From Armatimonadota bacterium (GTDB taxonomy: Bacteria; Armatimonadota; Fimbriimonadia; Fimbriimonadales; GBS-DC), in assembly GCA_023511915.1 (NCBI GenBank), contig JAIMAN010000002.1:13488-77487 (forward strand): 64,000 bases of DNA. The letters are read 5' to 3'. The notes beneath the pieces were generated by a model, which was not told the DNA's origin, searched no databases, and worked only from the letters and a program-made list of their open reading frames with translations. Below, in pieces: positions 2,113 to 8,211 of this stretch. The position numbers were made by a program, and so were the translations under genes. Positions within the stretch are counted from its first letter, which is position 1; the number at the start of each line of letters is the position of its first letter.

Positions 2113-4440
2113 ATGGTTAACGGCAACTTGCGCAAAGGACACGCCGTCGTGTTGGGCGCGGGCACGATGGGCGGCGGCATCGCCGCGCTGTTGGCAAGCA
2201 TCGGCTGGCGCGTTCACCTGCTGGATCAAGGCGAGATTGCCTCTCGCGCACTGGAACGCTTGCAGCAATCGGGCGCGTTTTATCAACCCAGCGACGCTGC
2301 GCGAATCACCCCAGGCGATGTGAACGCCGACTTGGACTGCGTGCGCGACGCCGACTGGGTCGTGGAAGCGATTATCGAGCAGATTGAACCCAAGCGTGCG
2401 CTGTGGCGGCAGGTCGCCGAGCGGGTGAACCCCGACGCCGTGCTGAGTTCCAACACTTCGGGACTGGGCATCGCCGAAATCGCGCAGGCGCTGCCCGAAC
2501 CCCTGCGCAAGCGGTTTCTGGGCACGCACTTTTTCAACCCCCCGCGCGTGATGCGCCTGCTGGAACTGATTCCCACCGAAGACACCGACCCTGACCTGAC
2601 GGTGCGCTTCACGACCTTCGCCGAGCGGCTGCTGGGCAAGCGCGTCGTGCTGGCGAAGGATCGCCCTGGGTTTATCACGACACGCATCGGCATCTACGCG
2701 ATGGTGCAGGCGTTGGTGAGCGCGATTCGGTACGGCATCACGCCCGAAGAGGCGGACTTGCTGTTGGGCACACTAATTGGTCGCCCGCGCAGCGGGGTGT
2801 TTCGGCTGACCGACCTTGTGGGGCTCGATGTCGCCAACAACATTATCCGCAACCAGAAAGAGCGTCTGCCCGACGACGCCTACATTCAGTCGCTGGAGCC
2901 GCCCGCCCTCTGGCACGCGCTGATTGCGCAGGGGCGTCTCGGCGAGAAGGCGGGCGCGGGCTTCTATCGGCGCGAGGGCAAGCAAATCCTCACGCTGGAC
3001 TACGCGACGCTGGACTACCGCCCCTACGCCGAGCCGAGCCTGCCCATCGAGCCGAGCCTCAGCCGCGCCCCTTACGAGGAGCGGCTGCCCGCCTTGCTGA
3101 ACCTGCCCGACCCGTATGGCGCGTTTATGCGCGAGGCGTTCCTCAAGCCGTTGGCGTATGGCGCGGCGGTGATGCCCGAAGTCGCCTACGACATCCCGTC
3201 GCTGGACATGGCGATGCGCCTCGGCTACAACTGGGACCTCGGCGTGTTCGAGACTTGGGACGCGCTGGGCGAGGCGGGACGCGACGCGCTAACGCGGCTT
3301 GACCTGCCCGAAGAGCCTGCCCCGCTGCGCGCCCTGCGCAACGCGGGACTGAAGACCTTCTACACGACCAAAGGCGCGAGCCGACTCTACTTCGAGCCGC
3401 GCGACGAGCAGGGCGACTACGCGCCGCTGCTGACCCCGCAGTTTTTCGTGCGCTTGGACGACCTCGCCCGCGCGGGCAGGGTGCTAGACGAGACGCCCGA
3501 ATGCCGCGTGATCGACCTCGGCGACGATGTGGCGTGCATCGAGTTCCGCACCAAAGCGAATGTGCTGACCCCCAGCCTGATGGAGTTCGTGCTGGCGTAC
3601 CTGGAGCGCGCCGAGCGGATGCATGTCGGCGTGGTGATAGGCAATCAGGGGCGGATGTTCTCGGCGGGGTTCAACCTGAACCTGTTTCTGGACTATATCG
3701 CCCGTGAAGACTGGCAGGGGATGGAGCGCGGGCTGACGCTGCTGCAGGAACTCAGCCAACGCATTCGGTACTGTGGCGTGCCTGTGGCGGCGGCGGTGCA
3801 TGGCTACGCGCTGGGCGGCGGGCTGGAGGTCGTGCTGCCCTGCGTGCATGTGCATGCGCATGTGGACACGGGGCTGGGGCTGCCCGAGGCGTCGGTCGGG
3901 CTGATTCCTGCAGGCGGCGGCACGACGCTGATGACCCGCCGCGCCTTGCACAACCTGCCGCCCGAAGCCGACCCGCTGCCGCATCTGCGCGCGCCGTTCC
4001 TCACCCTCGCCTACGGCAAGCGGTCGAGCAACGCTTTTGAGGCGTACACGCTGGGCTTCCTGCGCGAGCGCGACACGGTGTGCTGGAACCTTGACCGCCT
4101 GCTGTACGAAGCCAAGCAGCATGTGCTGGCGCTGTCGCGCGCGGGCTACCGACCCCCAGAGCCGACGCCAATCCTCGCAACAGGCGTCAACGGCTATAGC
4201 CGCCTGATGATGGAAGTCCACTGGATGCACCAAGCGGGGCAAATCAGCGACCACGACCGCCTGATTGCCGAGAAAATCGCCTTCGTGATGACGGGCGGCG
4301 ACCTGCGCGATGCAACGCCCCTGCCCGAAACGCACTTCCACGCCTTAGAGCGGCAGGTGTTTATTGAACTCTGCCAGACCGAGAAGACCGTCGCCCGCAT
4401 CCGCCACATGCTGGAGACGGGCAAACCGCTGCGCAATTAG
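2113..4440 (+). CDS. Bifunctional 3-hydroxyacyl-CoA dehydrogenase / enoyl-CoA hydratase (FadN-type domain order)
   Basis: N-terminal Rossmann motif VVLGAGTMGGGIAALLA with a 3HCDH region. C-terminal crotonase fold (MFSAGFNLNLF, HGYALGGGLEVVLPC). SD GGAGGG at 2102-2107. Confidence 0.85.
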   Translation: MVNGNLRKGHAVVLGAGTMGGGIAALLASIGWRVHLLDQGEIASRALERLQQSGAFYQPSDAARITPGDVNADLDCVRDADWVVEAIIEQIEPKRALWRQVAERVNPDAVLSSNTSGLGIAEIAQALPEPLRKRFLGTHFFNPPRVMRLLELIPTEDTDPDLTVRFTTFAERLLGKRVVLAKDRPGFITTRIGIYAMVQALVSAIRYGITPEEADLLLGTLIGRPRSGVFRLTDLVGLDVANNIIRNQKERLPDDAYIQSLEPPALWHALIAQGRLGEKAGAGFYRREGKQILTLDYATLDYRPYAEPSLPIEPSLSRAPYEERLPALLNLPDPYGAFMREAFLKPLAYGAAVMPEVAYDIPSLDMAMRLGYNWDLGVFETWDALGEAGRDALTRLDLPEEPAPLRALRNAGLKTFYTTKGASRLYFEPRDEQGDYAPLLTPQFFVRLDDLARAGRVLDETPECRVIDLGDDVACIEFRTKANVLTPSLMEFVLAYLERAERMHVGVVIGNQGRMFSAGFNLNLFLDYIAREDWQGMERGLTLLQELSQRIRYCGVPVAAAVHGYALGGGLEVVLPCVHVHAHVDTGLGLPEASVGLIPAGGGTTLMTRRALHNLPPEADPLPHLRAPFLTLAYGKRSSNAFEAYTLGFLRERDTVCWNLDRLLYEAKQHVLALSRAGYRPPEPTPILATGVNGYSRLMMEVHWMHQAGQISDHDRLIAEKIAFVMTGGDLRDATPLPETHFHALERQVFIELCQTEKTVARIRHMLETGKPLRN

Positions 4441-4517
4441 CGGGGCGGCTGGGAACTTTTTCGGGCTGTTGGCAGTATCATGGTGTATCCCATACCAGAA
4501 GGAGGAGGACAACCACT

Positions 4518-4703
4518 ATGACGACTGTCAAGGAAAAGGTGCGCGTTAACGACACGGAGTTCGAGATCGAACTCAAGCCCGTGCTGCCGAACACGGTGAA
4601 CGACCCGATGGTGCTGGATCAGCCGCTGCCGACGCCCGACGAAGTGCTACAGCGCGTGCCTGCAGTTGAGCAGCTGCCGAACTGGCAAGACGGGGGCTAC
4701 TAA
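4518..4703 (+). CDS. Small hypothetical protein (61 aa) ending ...WQDGGY; candidate ubiquitin-like or partner protein of the downstream E2-like gene
   Basis: Strong SD (GAAGGAGGAGG) lies 9 nt before the ATG. The stop overlaps the next start (TAATG at 4701-4705). C-terminus is Gly-Gly plus one residue. I recognise no family. Confidence 0.5.
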   Translation: MTTVKEKVRVNDTEFEIELKPVLPNTVNDPMVLDQPLPTPDEVLQRVPAVEQLPNWQDGGY

Positions 4704-5158
4704 TGGACGCGCGTCTGAAGCGTATCCACTACGAGGTCGCGCTGGCGGCGGTGCGCTACTCGCGCACCCACAGCGCGGACTTCGACGACGAATCGGGCAG
4801 CTGGGTCATCATCAAGGACTTCCCGCTGCCCGCAGGCTACAACTACGAGACGACCGATATTCTGGTGCTGCTGCCGCCGAACTACCCGCAGACGCCGCCC
4901 GACTGGTTCTATGTGGACGACAACCTGCGCCTTGCCGATGGACGCCGACCCAGCCATGTGTTTTACGGGCAGACGACGCACGACCCGAACGCGCGCAGTG
5001 CGAACCGCGCGGTGGACGCGCCGCCGCAGATGAAGGGCTGGACGGGGTGCTGCCTGCATATCCGTTCGTGGCAGCCCGCGCCGAACCCTGTGGAGGGGCA
5101 CTCGCTGCTGAGCGTGTGTGAACTGATTCGAGGCGCGCTGGAACGCTGGCGCAAGTAA
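4703..5158 (+). CDS. E2/UBC-fold (ubiquitin-conjugating enzyme-like) protein
   Basis: Motif-by-motif match to classical UBC E2s. LKRIHYEV matches LKRIHKEL; LLPPNYPQTPPDWFY matches HFPTDYPFKPPKVAF; HDPN matches HPN; GCCLHIRSWQP matches SICLDILRSQWSP (candidate catalytic Cys117); LLSVCELI matches LLSICSLL. Confidence 0.7.
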   Translation: MDARLKRIHYEVALAAVRYSRTHSADFDDESGSWVIIKDFPLPAGYNYETTDILVLLPPNYPQTPPDWFYVDDNLRLADGRRPSHVFYGQTTHDPNARSANRAVDAPPQMKGWTGCCLHIRSWQPAPNPVEGHSLLSVCELIRGALERWRK

Positions 5159-5164
5159 ACGGCG

Positions 5165-6181
5165 CTACCGCCCTGTCGCTGGGGTGTCTGAGTTAGGTGC
5201 GCTGAGCGATTGAGCGATGCGCTCGAGCTCGGCTTTGGGCAGGCTGCCCACGATGCCGAACCAGTAGTCGCCGCTCTGCCAGAAGTGGGCATGGGGTCGC
5301 CCGCGACGGCGCTTGCCCCCGAACTCGGCGGGGCGGCTCTTGTGCGCTTGAAAGATCGAGAATCGCGCACTTGGCGTGCGATAGTGCAGCACGACGACCT
5401 GCCCCGACGCGCGCGGCTGCACCATCACACGCTCCAGCGTCGCGCCTGTCGGCAGATAGCTCGGCGTGCGGATGGGGAATCCCGCGGCGCGCTGCGCCTC
5501 TTCAACGGTCTCGTACACGCCCCCCAACGGGCGCACGACCACATCGGGCGGCAGCGTGAACAGCTCAGGCGACAGGCGGGGGGTCAGCTCCAGGCGCGTG
5601 AGTTCCATGCGCATCACGGGCGCGCCTTCCCGCAGGGCGATTTCGCGTTTGAGCGCGTAGCCCGTCTGCTTGTCGATCCACAGGGTGACGGCGGCGGGGA
5701 ACATCGGGCGCGGCGGCTCGTCGCGTTGCAGGGCAGGGCGCGCCAGCGTCAGGCGCACCACGACGCAGCTGCGCCCCAGCACCGTCGCGTCGGGCAGCGT
5801 CTCCGCCAGCACCACCCCGCGCTGGACGAGTTCGACGGCGGTCTTGAGCAGCAGCGCGCCTTGAATGGGCATGCGGGGCATCTCGAACGCCTCTTTCGTG
5901 TTGGGGCGCATGGCGAGCCAGCGTCCGCCACGGTAGAGCAGCACCTCGCCGCGCCGTTCAGGGGGGGCGAGAACCTCGATGCGCTCGGCGCGTGCGCCCT
6001 GCCGCCAGAACCGCTCCTCGATGCGCTGCACGGTGCGTCCCGCCGTAATCTCCACGACCCGCGCGCCCGCGAGGGCGAGCGTCTCTTCCGCCTGCTGCGC
6101 GCGCTGCAGCCACTGCACAGGGCGCTCCTGCGCCCAGCCCAGCGTCCAGACCAGCGCGGTCAGCAGAAAGGCGGCTCTCAT
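5165..6181 (-). CDS. Exported MucB/RseB-like (LolA-fold) protein with DUF4367-like C-terminal domain
   Basis: Signal peptide MRAAFLLTALVWTLGWAQ. It is the third gene of the sigma/anti-sigma operon, with a 4-nt overlap on the anti-sigma gene. C-terminal YLPTGATLERV...FWQSGDYWFGIVG resembles DUF4367. Confidence 0.55.
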   Translation of the reverse strand: MRAAFLLTALVWTLGWAQERPVQWLQRAQQAEETLALAGARVVEITAGRTVQRIEERFWRQGARAERIEVLAPPERRGEVLLYRGGRWLAMRPNTKEAFEMPRMPIQGALLLKTAVELVQRGVVLAETLPDATVLGRSCVVVRLTLARPALQRDEPPRPMFPAAVTLWIDKQTGYALKREIALREGAPVMRMELTRLELTPRLSPELFTLPPDVVVRPLGGVYETVEEAQRAAGFPIRTPSYLPTGATLERVMVQPRASGQVVVLHYRTPSARFSIFQAHKSRPAEFGGKRRRGRPHAHFWQSGDYWFGIVGSLPKAELERIAQSLSAPNSDTPATGR

Positions 6182-6648
6182 CGGGTGTACCCTGTGCTGA
6201 TGAAGTAGCTCGGCGTCGGCGACGGCGACCAGTCCGCAACCTCCAACTGCTCGTGCAGCTCGACCAGCGACTCGGTCGGGTCTTCGGCGGCGGTGTTGAT
6301 AGGAGCGTTAGGCTGCTGCGCCTGCCAGCCCCACCACACGGCGACGGTCAGTAGCCCCAGCGCGGGTGCGAGCGCAACGCGCCGCCACACGCGCGCCCAA
6401 TCGACGCGCGGGCGGGCGGACGGCTGAGCCATGCGATGGCGTACCTGCACGGCGAGATTCTCAGGCGCACGATGGCGCGGGAGCGCGCGCAGCGCACGAT
6501 AGGTCGCCTGCGCCGCCGCCCACTGACGCTGGCAGCGCGGACACGCCTGCAGGTGCGCCTCGAACGCCTGCGCCTGCGCCGAGGGCAACTGACCCTCAAG
6601 ATACGCCCATATCTGCTGCTCAAAACGCTTGCAATTCATGTCAATCAC
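6178..6648 (-). CDS. Anti-sigma factor, zf-HC2 type, single-pass membrane
   Basis: HLQACPRC (H-x3-C-x2-C) motif near the N-terminus and one TM (VALAPALGLLTVAVWWGW). It lies immediately downstream of the ECF sigma gene. Confidence 0.75.
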   Translation of the reverse strand: MIDMNCKRFEQQIWAYLEGQLPSAQAQAFEAHLQACPRCQRQWAAAQATYRALRALPRHRAPENLAVQVRHRMAQPSARPRVDWARVWRRVALAPALGLLTVAVWWGWQAQQPNAPINTAAEDPTESLVELHEQLEVADWSPSPTPSYFISTGYTR

Positions 6649-6649
6649 C

Positions 6650-7312
6650 TCACTTCGCGGACGGCGCCCGCGTCGGCACGGGCGCGTCGCTCAGGTACGC
6701 CGCGACAGCCTTTTGAATCTGCGTGCGGGCGTGGTTCAGGCGCGACTTCACCGTGCCGATGGGAATGCCCAGCACGCGCGCAATCTCCTCATACGAGAGT
6801 TCCTCGACATCGTACAGCAGCAACACCGTTTTCAACTTCGGCGAGAGTTTGCCAATCGCCTCTTCGACGACCGCTTCCAGCTCGCGGTTCAGCGCAGCGT
6901 CCAGCGGGTTCGGCGTCTGCTGGTCGGGGAAATCCCACTCGGTCGCCTCGCCGTCCTCGTCGTCGTGCGCCGAGTAGGAGACCGTCGGCACGCGCCGCGC
7001 GCGCCTGCGCTGATGGTCAATACACAGGTTCGCCGCAATCCGATACAGCCAAGTGCCCAGACTGGCGCGCCCGTCGAAGTTGGGTAGCCCCTGATAGGCG
7101 CGCAGAAAGGTCTCCTGCACGAGGTCTTCCGCATCGGTCGCGTTGCCTACCATGCGTAGGATGTAGTTGTACAGGCGGTCGGCGTACAGGCTCATAATCT
7201 GCTCGAACGCCGCTTCGTCCTGCGCTTTGGCGCGCTCTACAAGCTGTGCTTCGACCGATAGGGTGTCCACCGCGACGAAACTCCCGCTTAAGGATACCGT
7301 TTCGCGGAACAT
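6650..7312 (-). CDS. ECF-type RNA polymerase sigma-70 family factor
   Basis: Region 2 (LYNYILRMVGNATDAEDLVQETFLRAY) and region 4 HTH (LSYEEIARVLGIPIGTVKSRL). Start moved to the internal ATG (MFRETV...) because the track ORF start at 7384 overlaps the tyrA stop. Confidence 0.85.
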   Translation of the reverse strand: MFRETVSLSGSFVAVDTLSVEAQLVERAKAQDEAAFEQIMSLYADRLYNYILRMVGNATDAEDLVQETFLRAYQGLPNFDGRASLGTWLYRIAANLCIDHQRRRARRVPTVSYSAHDDEDGEATEWDFPDQQTPNPLDAALNRELEAVVEEAIGKLSPKLKTVLLLYDVEELSYEEIARVLGIPIGTVKSRLNHARTQIQKAVAAYLSDAPVPTRAPSAK

Positions 7313-7380
7313 CGCACAGGTATAGACGCTTCGCGGGCGTTCGGGTTCAGTCCATCCCGTTGCCCAAGGAACGCGCGCAC

Positions 7381-8211
7381 TCACGGCTCACGCGGTGAGG
7401 GCGCGCTTGGGGCGCTGAACCATTCCTGAAGCGCGTTGGCGTCGCCCTGCTCAAGCGCGTCCGCAAGCGTCTGTAGCCGCTGGATGAGTTGCTGTAGCCA
7501 CTGGCGCGTCGGCTCGCGGTTCAGCGCCATCAGTTGCGCCCACAGCGCGGGGTCGCTTTGGGCGACGCGCGTCGCCGAACGCCAGCTGCCGCCTGGGGGC
7601 ACGGTCGTCGGGTTCTCGCGGTGCAGTGCAGCAAGGCTGAAGGCGACGGCGTGCGGGAGAAAACTCAGCAGCGCGAACTCGCGGTCGTGTTGCGCGGGGT
7701 CTACTGTCAGCGGCGCGGCGCGCAGGGTGCGTACGAACGCCTCCACGCGCAACAGGGCGTCGGGGTCGGTCTGCGCGGTCGGGGTCAGCACCCACGGCGC
7801 GCCGTGAAACAAATCGGCGCGCGCGGCGCGAACGCCGTGATGCTCCGTGCCCGCAATCGGGTGCCCCCCGACGAAGCGGCTGGGGTAGGGCAAGTGCGCC
7901 TCCGCCCAGCGCAGCACGGGCGACTTGACGCTCGCCACATCGGTCAGCACGGTTTCGGGGCGCAGGCGGGGCACGAGTGCTTGGAACACATCGGGCATCG
8001 CCAGCGGCGGCGTTGCTATCACGATGAGGTCGGCGTCGGCGCATGCAGCGACGCTCTCAGCGAGGTGGTCAATCGCGCCGATTTGCAGCGCGCCCTCCAG
8101 CGCGTCGGGGGCAATATCATAGCCGACCACGCCCCAGCCCAACGCCTCGTGCTGCACCGCCAGCCCGACCGACGCGCCGATCCCGCCCAGCCCGATAATC
8201 GCGATACGCAC
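7381..8211 (-). CDS. tyrA: Prephenate dehydrogenase
   Basis: VRIAIIGLGGIGASVGLA dinucleotide fold directly at the GTG at 8211, and the GGHPIAGTEHHG motif. The 102-aa Arg/Ala-rich N-terminal extension of the track ORF (to 8517) overlaps accA and was rejected. Confidence 0.8.
   Translation of the reverse strand: MRIAIIGLGGIGASVGLAVQHEALGWGVVGYDIAPDALEGALQIGAIDHLAESVAACADADLIVIATPPLAMPDVFQALVPRLRPETVLTDVASVKSPVLRWAEAHLPYPSRFVGGHPIAGTEHHGVRAARADLFHGAPWVLTPTAQTDPDALLRVEAFVRTLRAAPLTVDPAQHDREFALLSFLPHAVAFSLAALHRENPTTVPPGGSWRSATRVAQSDPALWAQLMALNREPTRQWLQQLIQRLQTLADALEQGDANALQEWFSAPSAPSPREP

Follow-up and report, generated by a model that had tools for sequence, protein, structure and literature searches.

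How can a bacterial gene for an E2-like enzyme take part in protein conjugation when the one gene coupled to it encodes a protein of only 61 residues? The question is raised by a two-gene cassette at positions 4441 to 5158 of a 64-kb stretch of DNA from an Armatimonadota bacterium (contig JAIMAN010000002.1). We call the whole stretch the window and number all positions within it; both genes of the cassette lie on the forward strand. A small open reading frame (ORF; 4518-4703) is followed by the gene of a 151-residue protein resembling ubiquitin-conjugating (E2) enzymes (4703-5158). A first-pass annotation, made by reading the sequence, had described the two as an orphan pair of a ubiquitin-like protein (Ubl) and an E2. 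The answer we favour, and consider rather probable, is that the cassette is a satellite modifier and E2 module of a Bub-related conjugation system present throughout the Fimbriimonadales, in which a JAB domain fused to an activating enzyme (E1) acts in trans.

Family and predicted fold of the E2

The 151-residue protein was first compared with protein families. Its single Pfam match at E<=10 was Prok-E2_E (PF14462), with E=8e-15 and 55.1 bits against a cutoff of 25 over residues 28-85. The eukaryotic-type UBC family (UQ_con type) gave no Pfam match at E<=10, and of the two families that had been suggested the Prok-E2 family was found and the UBC family was not. The NCBIfam scans showed no match for either protein of the pair. 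Zero families were obtained for either protein at E<=10 with the PADLOC-DB v2 models, which include Bil and Cap2/Cap3 of the cyclic oligonucleotide-based antiphage signalling systems (CBASS). An exact-sequence look-up of the E2 returned no identical record. When all sequences of the PDB were searched, BubB of Citrobacter was the only significant match (E=5.6e-5 for the window protein alone, improving to 4.4e-8 when the family profile was used), and the best eukaryotic E2 in the profile search was found at E=0.13.

The AlphaFold2 (AF2) model of the E2, calculated with 27 homologues, had a mean predicted local distance difference test score (pLDDT) of 84.9 and a predicted template modelling score (pTM) of 0.80. 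Helices were modelled at residues 3-19 and 135-149 and strands at residues 25-27, 34-41, 50-56, 68-72 and 113-117, which gives an N-terminal helix, a four-stranded sheet and one C-terminal helix, an architecture that qualifies as a UBC fold. A Foldseek search with this model found BubB (9eae_C) as the top and only significant match (E=3.7e-5, probability 1.0, TM-scores 0.54/0.63), followed by dozens of eukaryotic E2s with weak scores (E about 0.07-0.2). The Foldseek comparison thus supported the UBC fold for the E2, whereas the model of the small protein found no beta-grasp match, as described below. PF14462 was present in all 31 close homologues of the E2, and the wider family comprised 511 cluster representatives at E<=1e-3 in an all-source library. 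Every close relative for which a source was named is a bacterial metagenome-assembled genome (MAG). The Pfam family, the sequence match to BubB and the agreement between AF2 and Foldseek confirm the annotation as a UBC-fold E2, and sequence and model together identify the protein as a bacterial E2 of the BubB type.

The annotation had also called the E2 strikingly eukaryote-like. In that case the cassette would pair a ubiquitin-like beta-grasp protein with a canonical E2 of the eukaryotic type, which either came from eukaryotic UBC enzymes or was their ancestor. The N-terminal helix and the four-stranded sheet are as in UBC, and the weak similarity to many eukaryotic E2s in Foldseek and in the profile search is in line with such an origin. 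Nevertheless, we regard it as highly improbable and the idea as largely refuted. BubB is the one solved structure to which the protein is significantly related, whereas eukaryotic E2s reached E values of about 0.07-0.2 with Foldseek and at least 0.13 with the profile, and no Pfam UBC family matched. The single C-terminal helix is found in BubB and Cap2, the family is large (511 representative clusters) with the named close relatives all in bacterial MAGs, and neither the model nor Foldseek makes the small protein a beta-grasp.

The sequence 'HDPN', which had been read as the HPN motif of eukaryotic E2s, lies in a variable loop of about 15 residues (residues 90-104, positions 4970-5014) with a pLDDT below 50 at residues 90-93 and 95-104. 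This loop is missing in BubB, variable and gapped among the close homologues and mostly replaced by gaps in the wider family. The His itself varies between H, F, Y and V. The match to HPN is therefore spurious, and an HPN-like motif that is not conserved and sits in a disordered loop is a further argument against a eukaryote-type enzyme.

Active site of the E2

The catalytic residues were located by comparison with BubB. In Type I BubB the active site consists of D299, S333 and H335, and the exchange S333A/H335A abolishes conjugation (Ye et al., bioRxiv 10.1101/2024.11.21.623953). A gap-free HMMER alignment placed residue 67 of the window E2 opposite residue 70 of the BubB chain, which is D299 of BubAB in the numbering of Ye et al. 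This Asp67 (codon at 4901-4903, in the sequence PPDWFYVD) is invariant among the close homologues. Cys117, Leu118 and His119 (codons at 5051-5059) make up a [C/S]-x-H sequence within the motif GW..[FY][CS].H, which is nearly invariant among the close homologues. Cys117 is offset from S333 of BubB by 13 residues because of the extra loop at residues 90-104, and the offset equals the length of the loop insertion.

When 149 representatives of the wider family were aligned to the profile of the window family, the Cys117 column contained Cys in 74, Ser in 27 and a gap in 43; C-x-H was found in 54 and S-x-H in 27 of these sequences. A protein of 357 residues, which has the length of a BubAB fusion (P0140), has S-x-H at this column. 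By alignment, D67, C117 and H119 are the predicted counterparts of D299, S333 and H335 of BubB, with Cys in place of Ser, and the window E2 is assigned to a large Cys-type branch of the Prok-E2_E family. The catalytic position given to Cys117 in the annotation was thus upheld by an alignment in which this nearly invariant residue falls into a [C/S] column where fusions of BubAB length have Ser.

Among the closest E2 relatives outside the Fimbriimonadales, P0059 and P0060 (E=3e-43 and 6e-36) have Ser at the catalytic column, and therefore switching between Cys and Ser seems to be evolutionarily easy in this family.

A small protein in the position of the modifier

The small ORF, the candidate modifier precursor ('mini-Ubl'), starts with ATG at 4518, stops with TAA at 4701-4703 and ends with ...WQDGGY. 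A Shine-Dalgarno (SD) run, GAAGGAGGAGGA, is located at 4498-4509, 9 nt 5' of the ATG, and the stop codon overlaps the start codon of the E2 gene in the sequence TAATG (4701-4705), which indicates translational coupling. Both ORFs, their positions, the SD run and the overlap were verified in the sequence. In 31 of 31 loci the small ORF is found directly 5' of the E2 gene and a stop codon separates the two; in the relatives the two genes are neighbours without exception, overlapping by up to 4 nt or separated by as much as 87 nt.

An alignment of the homologues of the small protein (27 sequences) showed two invariant features, an N-terminal hairpin with the pattern V.[VIL]N[DG]..[FY].[IV] and the C-terminal sequence LP.W.DG, separated by a Pro/Thr-rich middle part that varies in length and sequence. 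The Gly of this C-terminal sequence, Gly59 (codon at 4692-4694), is invariant and is the predicted C-terminus of the mature protein. Gly60-Tyr61 (4695-4700) would be removed as a tail. Compared across the loci, the tail after the invariant Gly has 2-4 residues and is variable (GY, GC, AF, IG, GGDA, ATKR, APA and others). The ubiquitin-like di-glycine end of the first-pass annotation was therefore found in part: one Gly is invariant and is followed by a tail of the removable type, but the second Gly is not conserved (GG, GA, GI, GT or GM). The same holds for the comparison of the relatives as a whole, in which the pair is syntenic and the GG is not kept.

The predicted processing resembles that in Type I Bub, where BubA is fused 5' of BubB and the JAB domain cuts after a conserved Gly (Ye et al., bioRxiv 10.1101/2024.11.21.623953). 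In the metagenomic relative L038 (1-198), the 5' ORF has the sequence IPRWEDGG and continues with about 40 Gly/Arg/Ala-rich residues to the start of the E2; this extension is either an unusually long pro-peptide or an artefact of assembly or frame.

The fold of the small protein was less clear. It had no match in Pfam, and the PDB profile search with its family gave matches at chance level, the best being an unrelated actin depolymerisation factor at E=0.038. The AF2 model shows a hairpin at residues 4-19, a Pro-rich coil and a short helix at residues 40-45, with a pLDDT of 74.8 and a pTM of 0.27, and was limited by a shallow alignment of homologues. Foldseek found nothing below E=4.5 with this model, a negative result that the low pTM makes weak. 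When the small family was compared by hhalign with the Ubl regions of fused relatives, the probability was 19% and covered the first hairpin only; a more diverse profile gave 64% (E=6.6e-5) in the same register over 12 columns, again of the first hairpin only. The annotated beta-grasp was not recovered, since the model has one hairpin and coil, Foldseek returned nothing and the profile match is limited to the first hairpin. Homology to the beta-grasp proteins is accordingly not claimed for a match confined to 12 columns.

More can be learned from other lineages that have Cys-type E2s and different proteins in the same gene slot. In L039 the slot is occupied by an unfused beta-grasp-like Ubl of 73 residues, which ends with ...APTFQYG and a four-residue tail, AAVG. 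In the fused relatives it is a Ubl ending with P-[RK]-[YFW]-x-x-G, one of which has a weak Multi_ubiq match. The small proteins of L041 (68 residues) and L040 (47 residues) have the same hairpin pattern as the window protein and end exactly at the Gly. The position in the slot, its occupants in other lineages and the profile comparison make it plausible that the small protein has the role of a Ubl. It appears to be a strongly reduced Bub-type Ubl that has kept the first hairpin and the activation tail. The small ORF itself is genuine, as it is coupled, conserved, under purifying selection and in the position of a Ubl precursor.

Complete operons in related genomes

When close relatives' E1s and the products of their fourth genes were used as tblastn queries, the 64-kb window yielded no E1, JAB or zinc-finger partner gene, which confirms that the cassette has no E1 or JAB gene nearby. 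Homologues of both proteins are confined to MAGs of the Fimbriimonadales and Armatimonadota. In a relative with 69% identity the pair is directly followed by genes for a ThiF-domain protein of 492 residues and a protein of 138 residues (p138). We then sorted 29 genome loci and some others by tblastn (related loci are labelled L001-L041) and obtained three architectures. The majority has the four-gene form small-E2-E1-p138 (L001/2/3, L006, L008, L009, L011-L018, L020-L030, L035 and L041). A three-gene form, small-E2-p138, was found in L007, L010, L031 and L032. The two-gene form is that of the window, L004 and L005, which share the downstream neighbours. The nearest relative, L033, whose E2 gene has 97.6% nucleotide identity, has the two-gene layout and the same flanking genes.

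Reduced and full copies occur in the same genomes. In the complete genome AP024673.1 the reduced L005 is located at about 0.11 Mb and the full L023 at about 2.76 Mb. Likewise, JBBIQK01 contains L004 and L026, BPGO01 L010 and L018, NKPV01 L007 and L014, and JBDNDR01 L032 and L024, and on a 2.76-Mb JGI contig L037 and L035 are about 148 kb apart. A full operon at another site was found in every well-sampled genome that has a reduced pair. The window E2 groups with the four-gene copies of other genomes (about 80% identity) and not with the full copy of its near relatives (69%), and the window copy therefore descends from one operon lineage by truncation and exists beside another. The cassette looks like an orphan because paralogous full operons sit elsewhere in the related genomes. 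With more than 20 related loci that have JAB-E1 and zinc-finger genes after the pair, the idea of a minimal, self-sufficient orphan system had to be given up.

Two modules of one genome have modifiers that are 80-87% identical and E2s that are 69-76% identical, and the C-terminal motif of the modifiers is identical. Because the modifiers of co-resident modules are more alike than the E2s and share this motif, the service of several modules by one E1 in trans is supported.

The JAB-E1 and the fourth gene

The E1 of the relatives aligns over residues 9-422 with BubCD of Citrobacter (E=9.5e-24), and the alignment includes the JAB motif E...HxH...S..D and the Tyr of 'GYIxG'. This Tyr corresponds to Y370 of BubCD, which carries the Ubl as an oxyester (Ye et al., bioRxiv 10.1101/2024.11.21.623953). 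The crossover-loop Tyr, in GY[IV]QG, is invariant across the 21 E1s, 20 of which also have an intact JAB motif. In the E1 of L024 (1076-2512, in JBDNDR01) the metal motif of the JAB domain is degenerate, with EADGYPQTHQEHGSNTSPENT replacing EAHSHPW...FS.ID..SD, and the adenylation motifs and the Tyr in GYVQG are kept.

The fourth gene (L002:11938-12354, L035:8199-8708 and L010:9765-10190) encodes a protein with an invariant N-terminal PIP.NRRW and two tandem zinc-finger units, C-x2-C-x19-20-H-x2-C. It had no match to DUF6527 (PF20137), none of its 42 homologues has PF20137, and all 42 are from Armatimonadota. Its matches in Pfam were sub-threshold ones to zf-ANAPC11/RING-H2, DUF2175 and PHD. 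A RING-type ligase (E3) was considered as a possible identity of the 138-residue protein; zf-ANAPC11 and zf-RING_2 stayed below threshold, and the tandem units are 16 residues apart, which is not the spacing of a cross-brace. The fourth gene is kept in the three-gene loci that have no E1, and it therefore seems to be tied to the E2 and the modifier rather than to the E1.

Maintenance of the reduced pair

A reduced copy could simply be the decaying, functionless remnant of a four-gene operon that has lost its E1 and zinc-finger genes. Neither the E1 nor p138 is encoded here, the stop codon of the E2 gene is 6 nt from the next gene and three-gene intermediates exist (L007, L010, L031 and L032), all as expected for decay. 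In addition, a pairwise DNA alignment showed a further deletion of 39 nt at the 3' end of the window E2 gene, between 5155 and 5156, compared with the gene of L033, its nearest relative. An acidic C-terminal tail of 13 residues, PPVSVIVDDDPFE, is lost in this way; many members of the E2 family end in a D-[DE]-D-P-F tail. The counterpart of this tail region in L033 is at 6640-6680.

Against decay, the ratio of nonsynonymous to synonymous substitutions (dN/dS) of the window genes compared with L004 and L005 was 0.14 (small ORF) and 0.14-0.15 (E2 gene), at a synonymous divergence (dS) of about 0.4-0.5, after a loss that is common to the window, L004, L005, L033, L036 and L037. Both reading frames are intact, the SD run and the coupling are preserved, the catalytic residues are intact in the two-gene copies, and the 39-nt deletion does not shift the frame. 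Purifying selection maintains the reduced pair, which is not decaying, and we consider a functionless remnant quite improbable.

A proposed module served in trans

The favoured explanation, a satellite module served by a JAB-E1 in trans, starts from an ancestral unit of four genes for the small protein, the BubB-like E2, the BubCD-like JAB/E1 fusion and the tandem C2HC zinc-finger protein. The window lineage would have lost the last two genes from this copy, and a complete operon elsewhere in the genome would be expected to supply the JAB-E1. The two genes of the cassette are translated together, as their SD run and TAATG overlap show. The JAB domain would then trim Gly60-Tyr61 and expose Gly59, by analogy with BubCD, which cleaves BubAB after a conserved Gly. 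The E1 is predicted to adenylate Gly59 and to hold the modifier on its crossover-loop Tyr, as the conservation of this Tyr in the E1s of the relatives suggests. From there the modifier would be transferred to Cys117 as a thioester with the assistance of His119 and Asp67, the residues aligned with the BubB active site, and finally the E2 may hand it to a lysine of a target protein.

Several points weigh against this explanation. The presence of a JAB-E1 in the organism of the window is deduced from its relatives, and the window covers 64 kb only. Conjugation by this subfamily is a prediction from sequence. To our knowledge, no relay from an E1-Tyr oxyester to an E2-Cys thioester has been published before. 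A beta-grasp could not be detected in the small protein, whose homology to the Ubls relies on 12 columns and the end motifs. The fourth gene does not encode a BubE/DUF6527 protease, and regulation and deconjugation may differ from Bub. Finally, the window E2 lacks the acidic C-terminal tail of its nearest relatives, which might affect its function.

A more specific version is possible, although we hold it only tentatively: a mostly unstructured modifier of about 59 residues without a beta-grasp would act together with a Tyr-type JAB-E1 and a Cys-type E2, and one E1 would serve several dispersed modules. If this is true, a Bub-related system would combine a Pup-like form of the modifier with ubiquitin-like chemistry. 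It would also be a bacterial parallel to the eukaryotic principle of 'one E1, many E2s', and its role may be housekeeping or stress-regulatory rather than anti-phage.

Comparison with known systems

Pup of the Actinobacteria has about 60 residues, is largely unstructured and ends with Gly-Gly-Gln/Glu, which in some species requires trimming or deamidation. It is ligated through a side-chain carboxylate by PafA, a glutamine-synthetase-like enzyme, without E1 or E2. We know of no sequence relationship between Pup and the small protein; the likeness is one of form only.

The closest known system is Type I Bub, whose 6E.1 or DUF6527 operons encode BubAB, BubCD and BubE. The E2s are in the same Pfam family, Prok-E2_E, with BubB as the best match in both sequence and fold, and they share the active-site Asp and the geometry of a nucleophile-x-His motif. 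In the relatives the partner enzyme, a JAB-E1 fusion, resembles BubCD and shares its crossover-loop Tyr. The modifier is encoded immediately 5' of the E2, and a conserved Gly marks the putative site of processing and activation. On the other hand, the E2 nucleophile is Cys117 here and an invariant Ser in Bub, and the modifier is encoded by a separate, coupled gene and not as a Ubl-E2 fusion (BubAB). The modifiers have 47-68 residues and are not modelled as beta-grasps, whereas the published BubA proteins contain 1-3 beta-grasp domains. The fourth gene of the relatives encodes a tandem C2HC zinc finger instead of the DUF6527 Ser-His protease BubE. The loci are chromosomal, order-wide and present in several copies, with E1-less satellite modules, and no CapW or CapH/CapP regulators were seen nearby. 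Of the components that define Type I Bub, the 64-kb window contains neither the JAB-E1 (BubCD), a BubCD-like form of which is present in the operons of the relatives, nor DUF6527/BubE.

The 6e neighbourhoods described earlier (Iyer, Burroughs & Aravind 2006, PMC1779556) are similar in having a central JAB-E1 fusion together with genes for E2/RWD-like, Ubl and small zinc-finger proteins. They differ in that the E2-like domains of 6e, which do not have the conserved Cys, were regarded as probably inactive, whereas the Cys is present here, and in that they contain a poly-Ubl and a C-x3-C...H-x2-C protein (now DUF6527) instead of a mini-modifier and another zinc finger. The groups in which they were described, proteobacteria, cyanobacteria and actinobacteria, do not include Armatimonadota. 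Like Bil (BilABCD) and Cap2/Cap3 of CBASS, the predicted system would combine a bacterial E1, E2 and JAB domain, form its thioester on the Cys of the E2 and work without a dedicated E3. However, the E1 of Bil has several domains, one of them a catalytic Cys domain, and the Bil Ubl resembles ISG15; in Cap2 the E2 is fused to the E1, and the protein that it conjugates is a cGAS-like enzyme. Neither architecture was found here.

Bub was reported in 2024 as unique for its all-oxyester intermediates (on Tyr and Ser), its beta-grasp Ubls and its DUF6527 protease (bioRxiv 10.1101/2024.11.21.623953). The published accounts of Bub describe no Cys-type members, mini-modifiers or E1-less satellite modules, and a literature search for Cys-type Bub relatives or Ubl systems of Armatimonadota found no later account. 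What is new compared with Bub is that the same E1 and E2 scaffolds are combined with a Cys as the E2 nucleophile, a drastically reduced modifier and a different fourth gene. The family is thus a natural comparison for asking why Bub used Ser, how little of a Ubl an E1/E2 pair needs and whether a bacterial E1 can serve several dedicated modules of E2 and modifier in trans. For annotation, the lesson is that whenever an 'orphan' E2 is found beside a very small ORF without annotation, the whole genome should be searched for a paralogous complete operon.

The locus and its neighbouring genes

The cassette begins at 4441 with the first base of a 77-nt intergenic spacer, 3' of a FadN-like gene for a 3-hydroxyacyl-CoA dehydrogenase/enoyl-CoA hydratase of 775 residues (2113-4440). 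Downstream, after a gap of 6 nt, the genes for a MucB/RseB-like protein of 338 residues, a zf-HC2 anti-sigma factor and an extracytoplasmic function (ECF) sigma factor follow on the reverse strand (5165-7384). The neighbours are thus those that had been named, a FadN-like gene on the 5' side and a convergent sigma cluster on the 3' side. A site scan of 4300-5400 detected no sigma-70-like promoter and no intrinsic terminator.

The sigma cluster gives reason to consider a different function, in which the E2 and the small protein form a stable, E1-independent and non-conjugating complex that serves regulation or scaffolding, perhaps in connection with the ECF sigma/anti-sigma/MucB-RseB-like genes, and the C-terminal Gly motif is a binding element instead of a conjugation site. 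The two-gene pair is found in convergent orientation 6 nt from the sigma cluster in the window, L004, L005, L033, L036 and L037, and this holds although the upstream neighbour differs (FadN-like or BcrAD_BadFG). Such a complex would also explain why the pair is under purifying selection without an E1 in cis, and the small protein is modelled as largely unstructured when alone, as binding partners often are. A precedent could be the cysteine-less 6e E2/RWD-like domains, which were proposed to be non-catalytic ubiquitin binders (Iyer et al. 2006, PMC1779556). In the two-gene copies, however, Cys117, His119 and Asp67 are invariant, and the convergent orientation excludes co-transcription with the sigma cluster. 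Every well-sampled genome with the pair has the full operon with the JAB-E1, and an invariant Gly followed by a variable tail, or a terminal Gly as in L040 and L041, is the signature of a C-terminus that is processed and activated. We therefore think that a non-conjugating complex is unlikely and prefer the module served in trans.

A defence-island context was also considered and is disfavoured by the housekeeping genes that neighbour the Fimbriimonadales loci, near which no mobile-element genes were seen.

Further upstream in the window, a PQQ/beta-propeller-like repeat protein with a Gly/Arg-rich tail is encoded at 51-1316 and the ATPase of an ATP-binding cassette (ABC) transporter at 1297-2082. 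L033 has the matching gene order with two additional genes, for an N6/N4 DNA methyltransferase and a protein of 362 residues, between the ABC and FadN-like genes; both are missing from the window. In L041 (4930-7265), which is from outside the Fimbriimonadales, the small, E2 and JAB/E1 genes are followed by genes for a hydrophobic, probably membrane-bound protein of 138 residues, a protein of 197 residues and a P-loop protein. By eye, the P-loop protein resembles a conjugative coupling protein, which hints at a mobile-element context for this locus.

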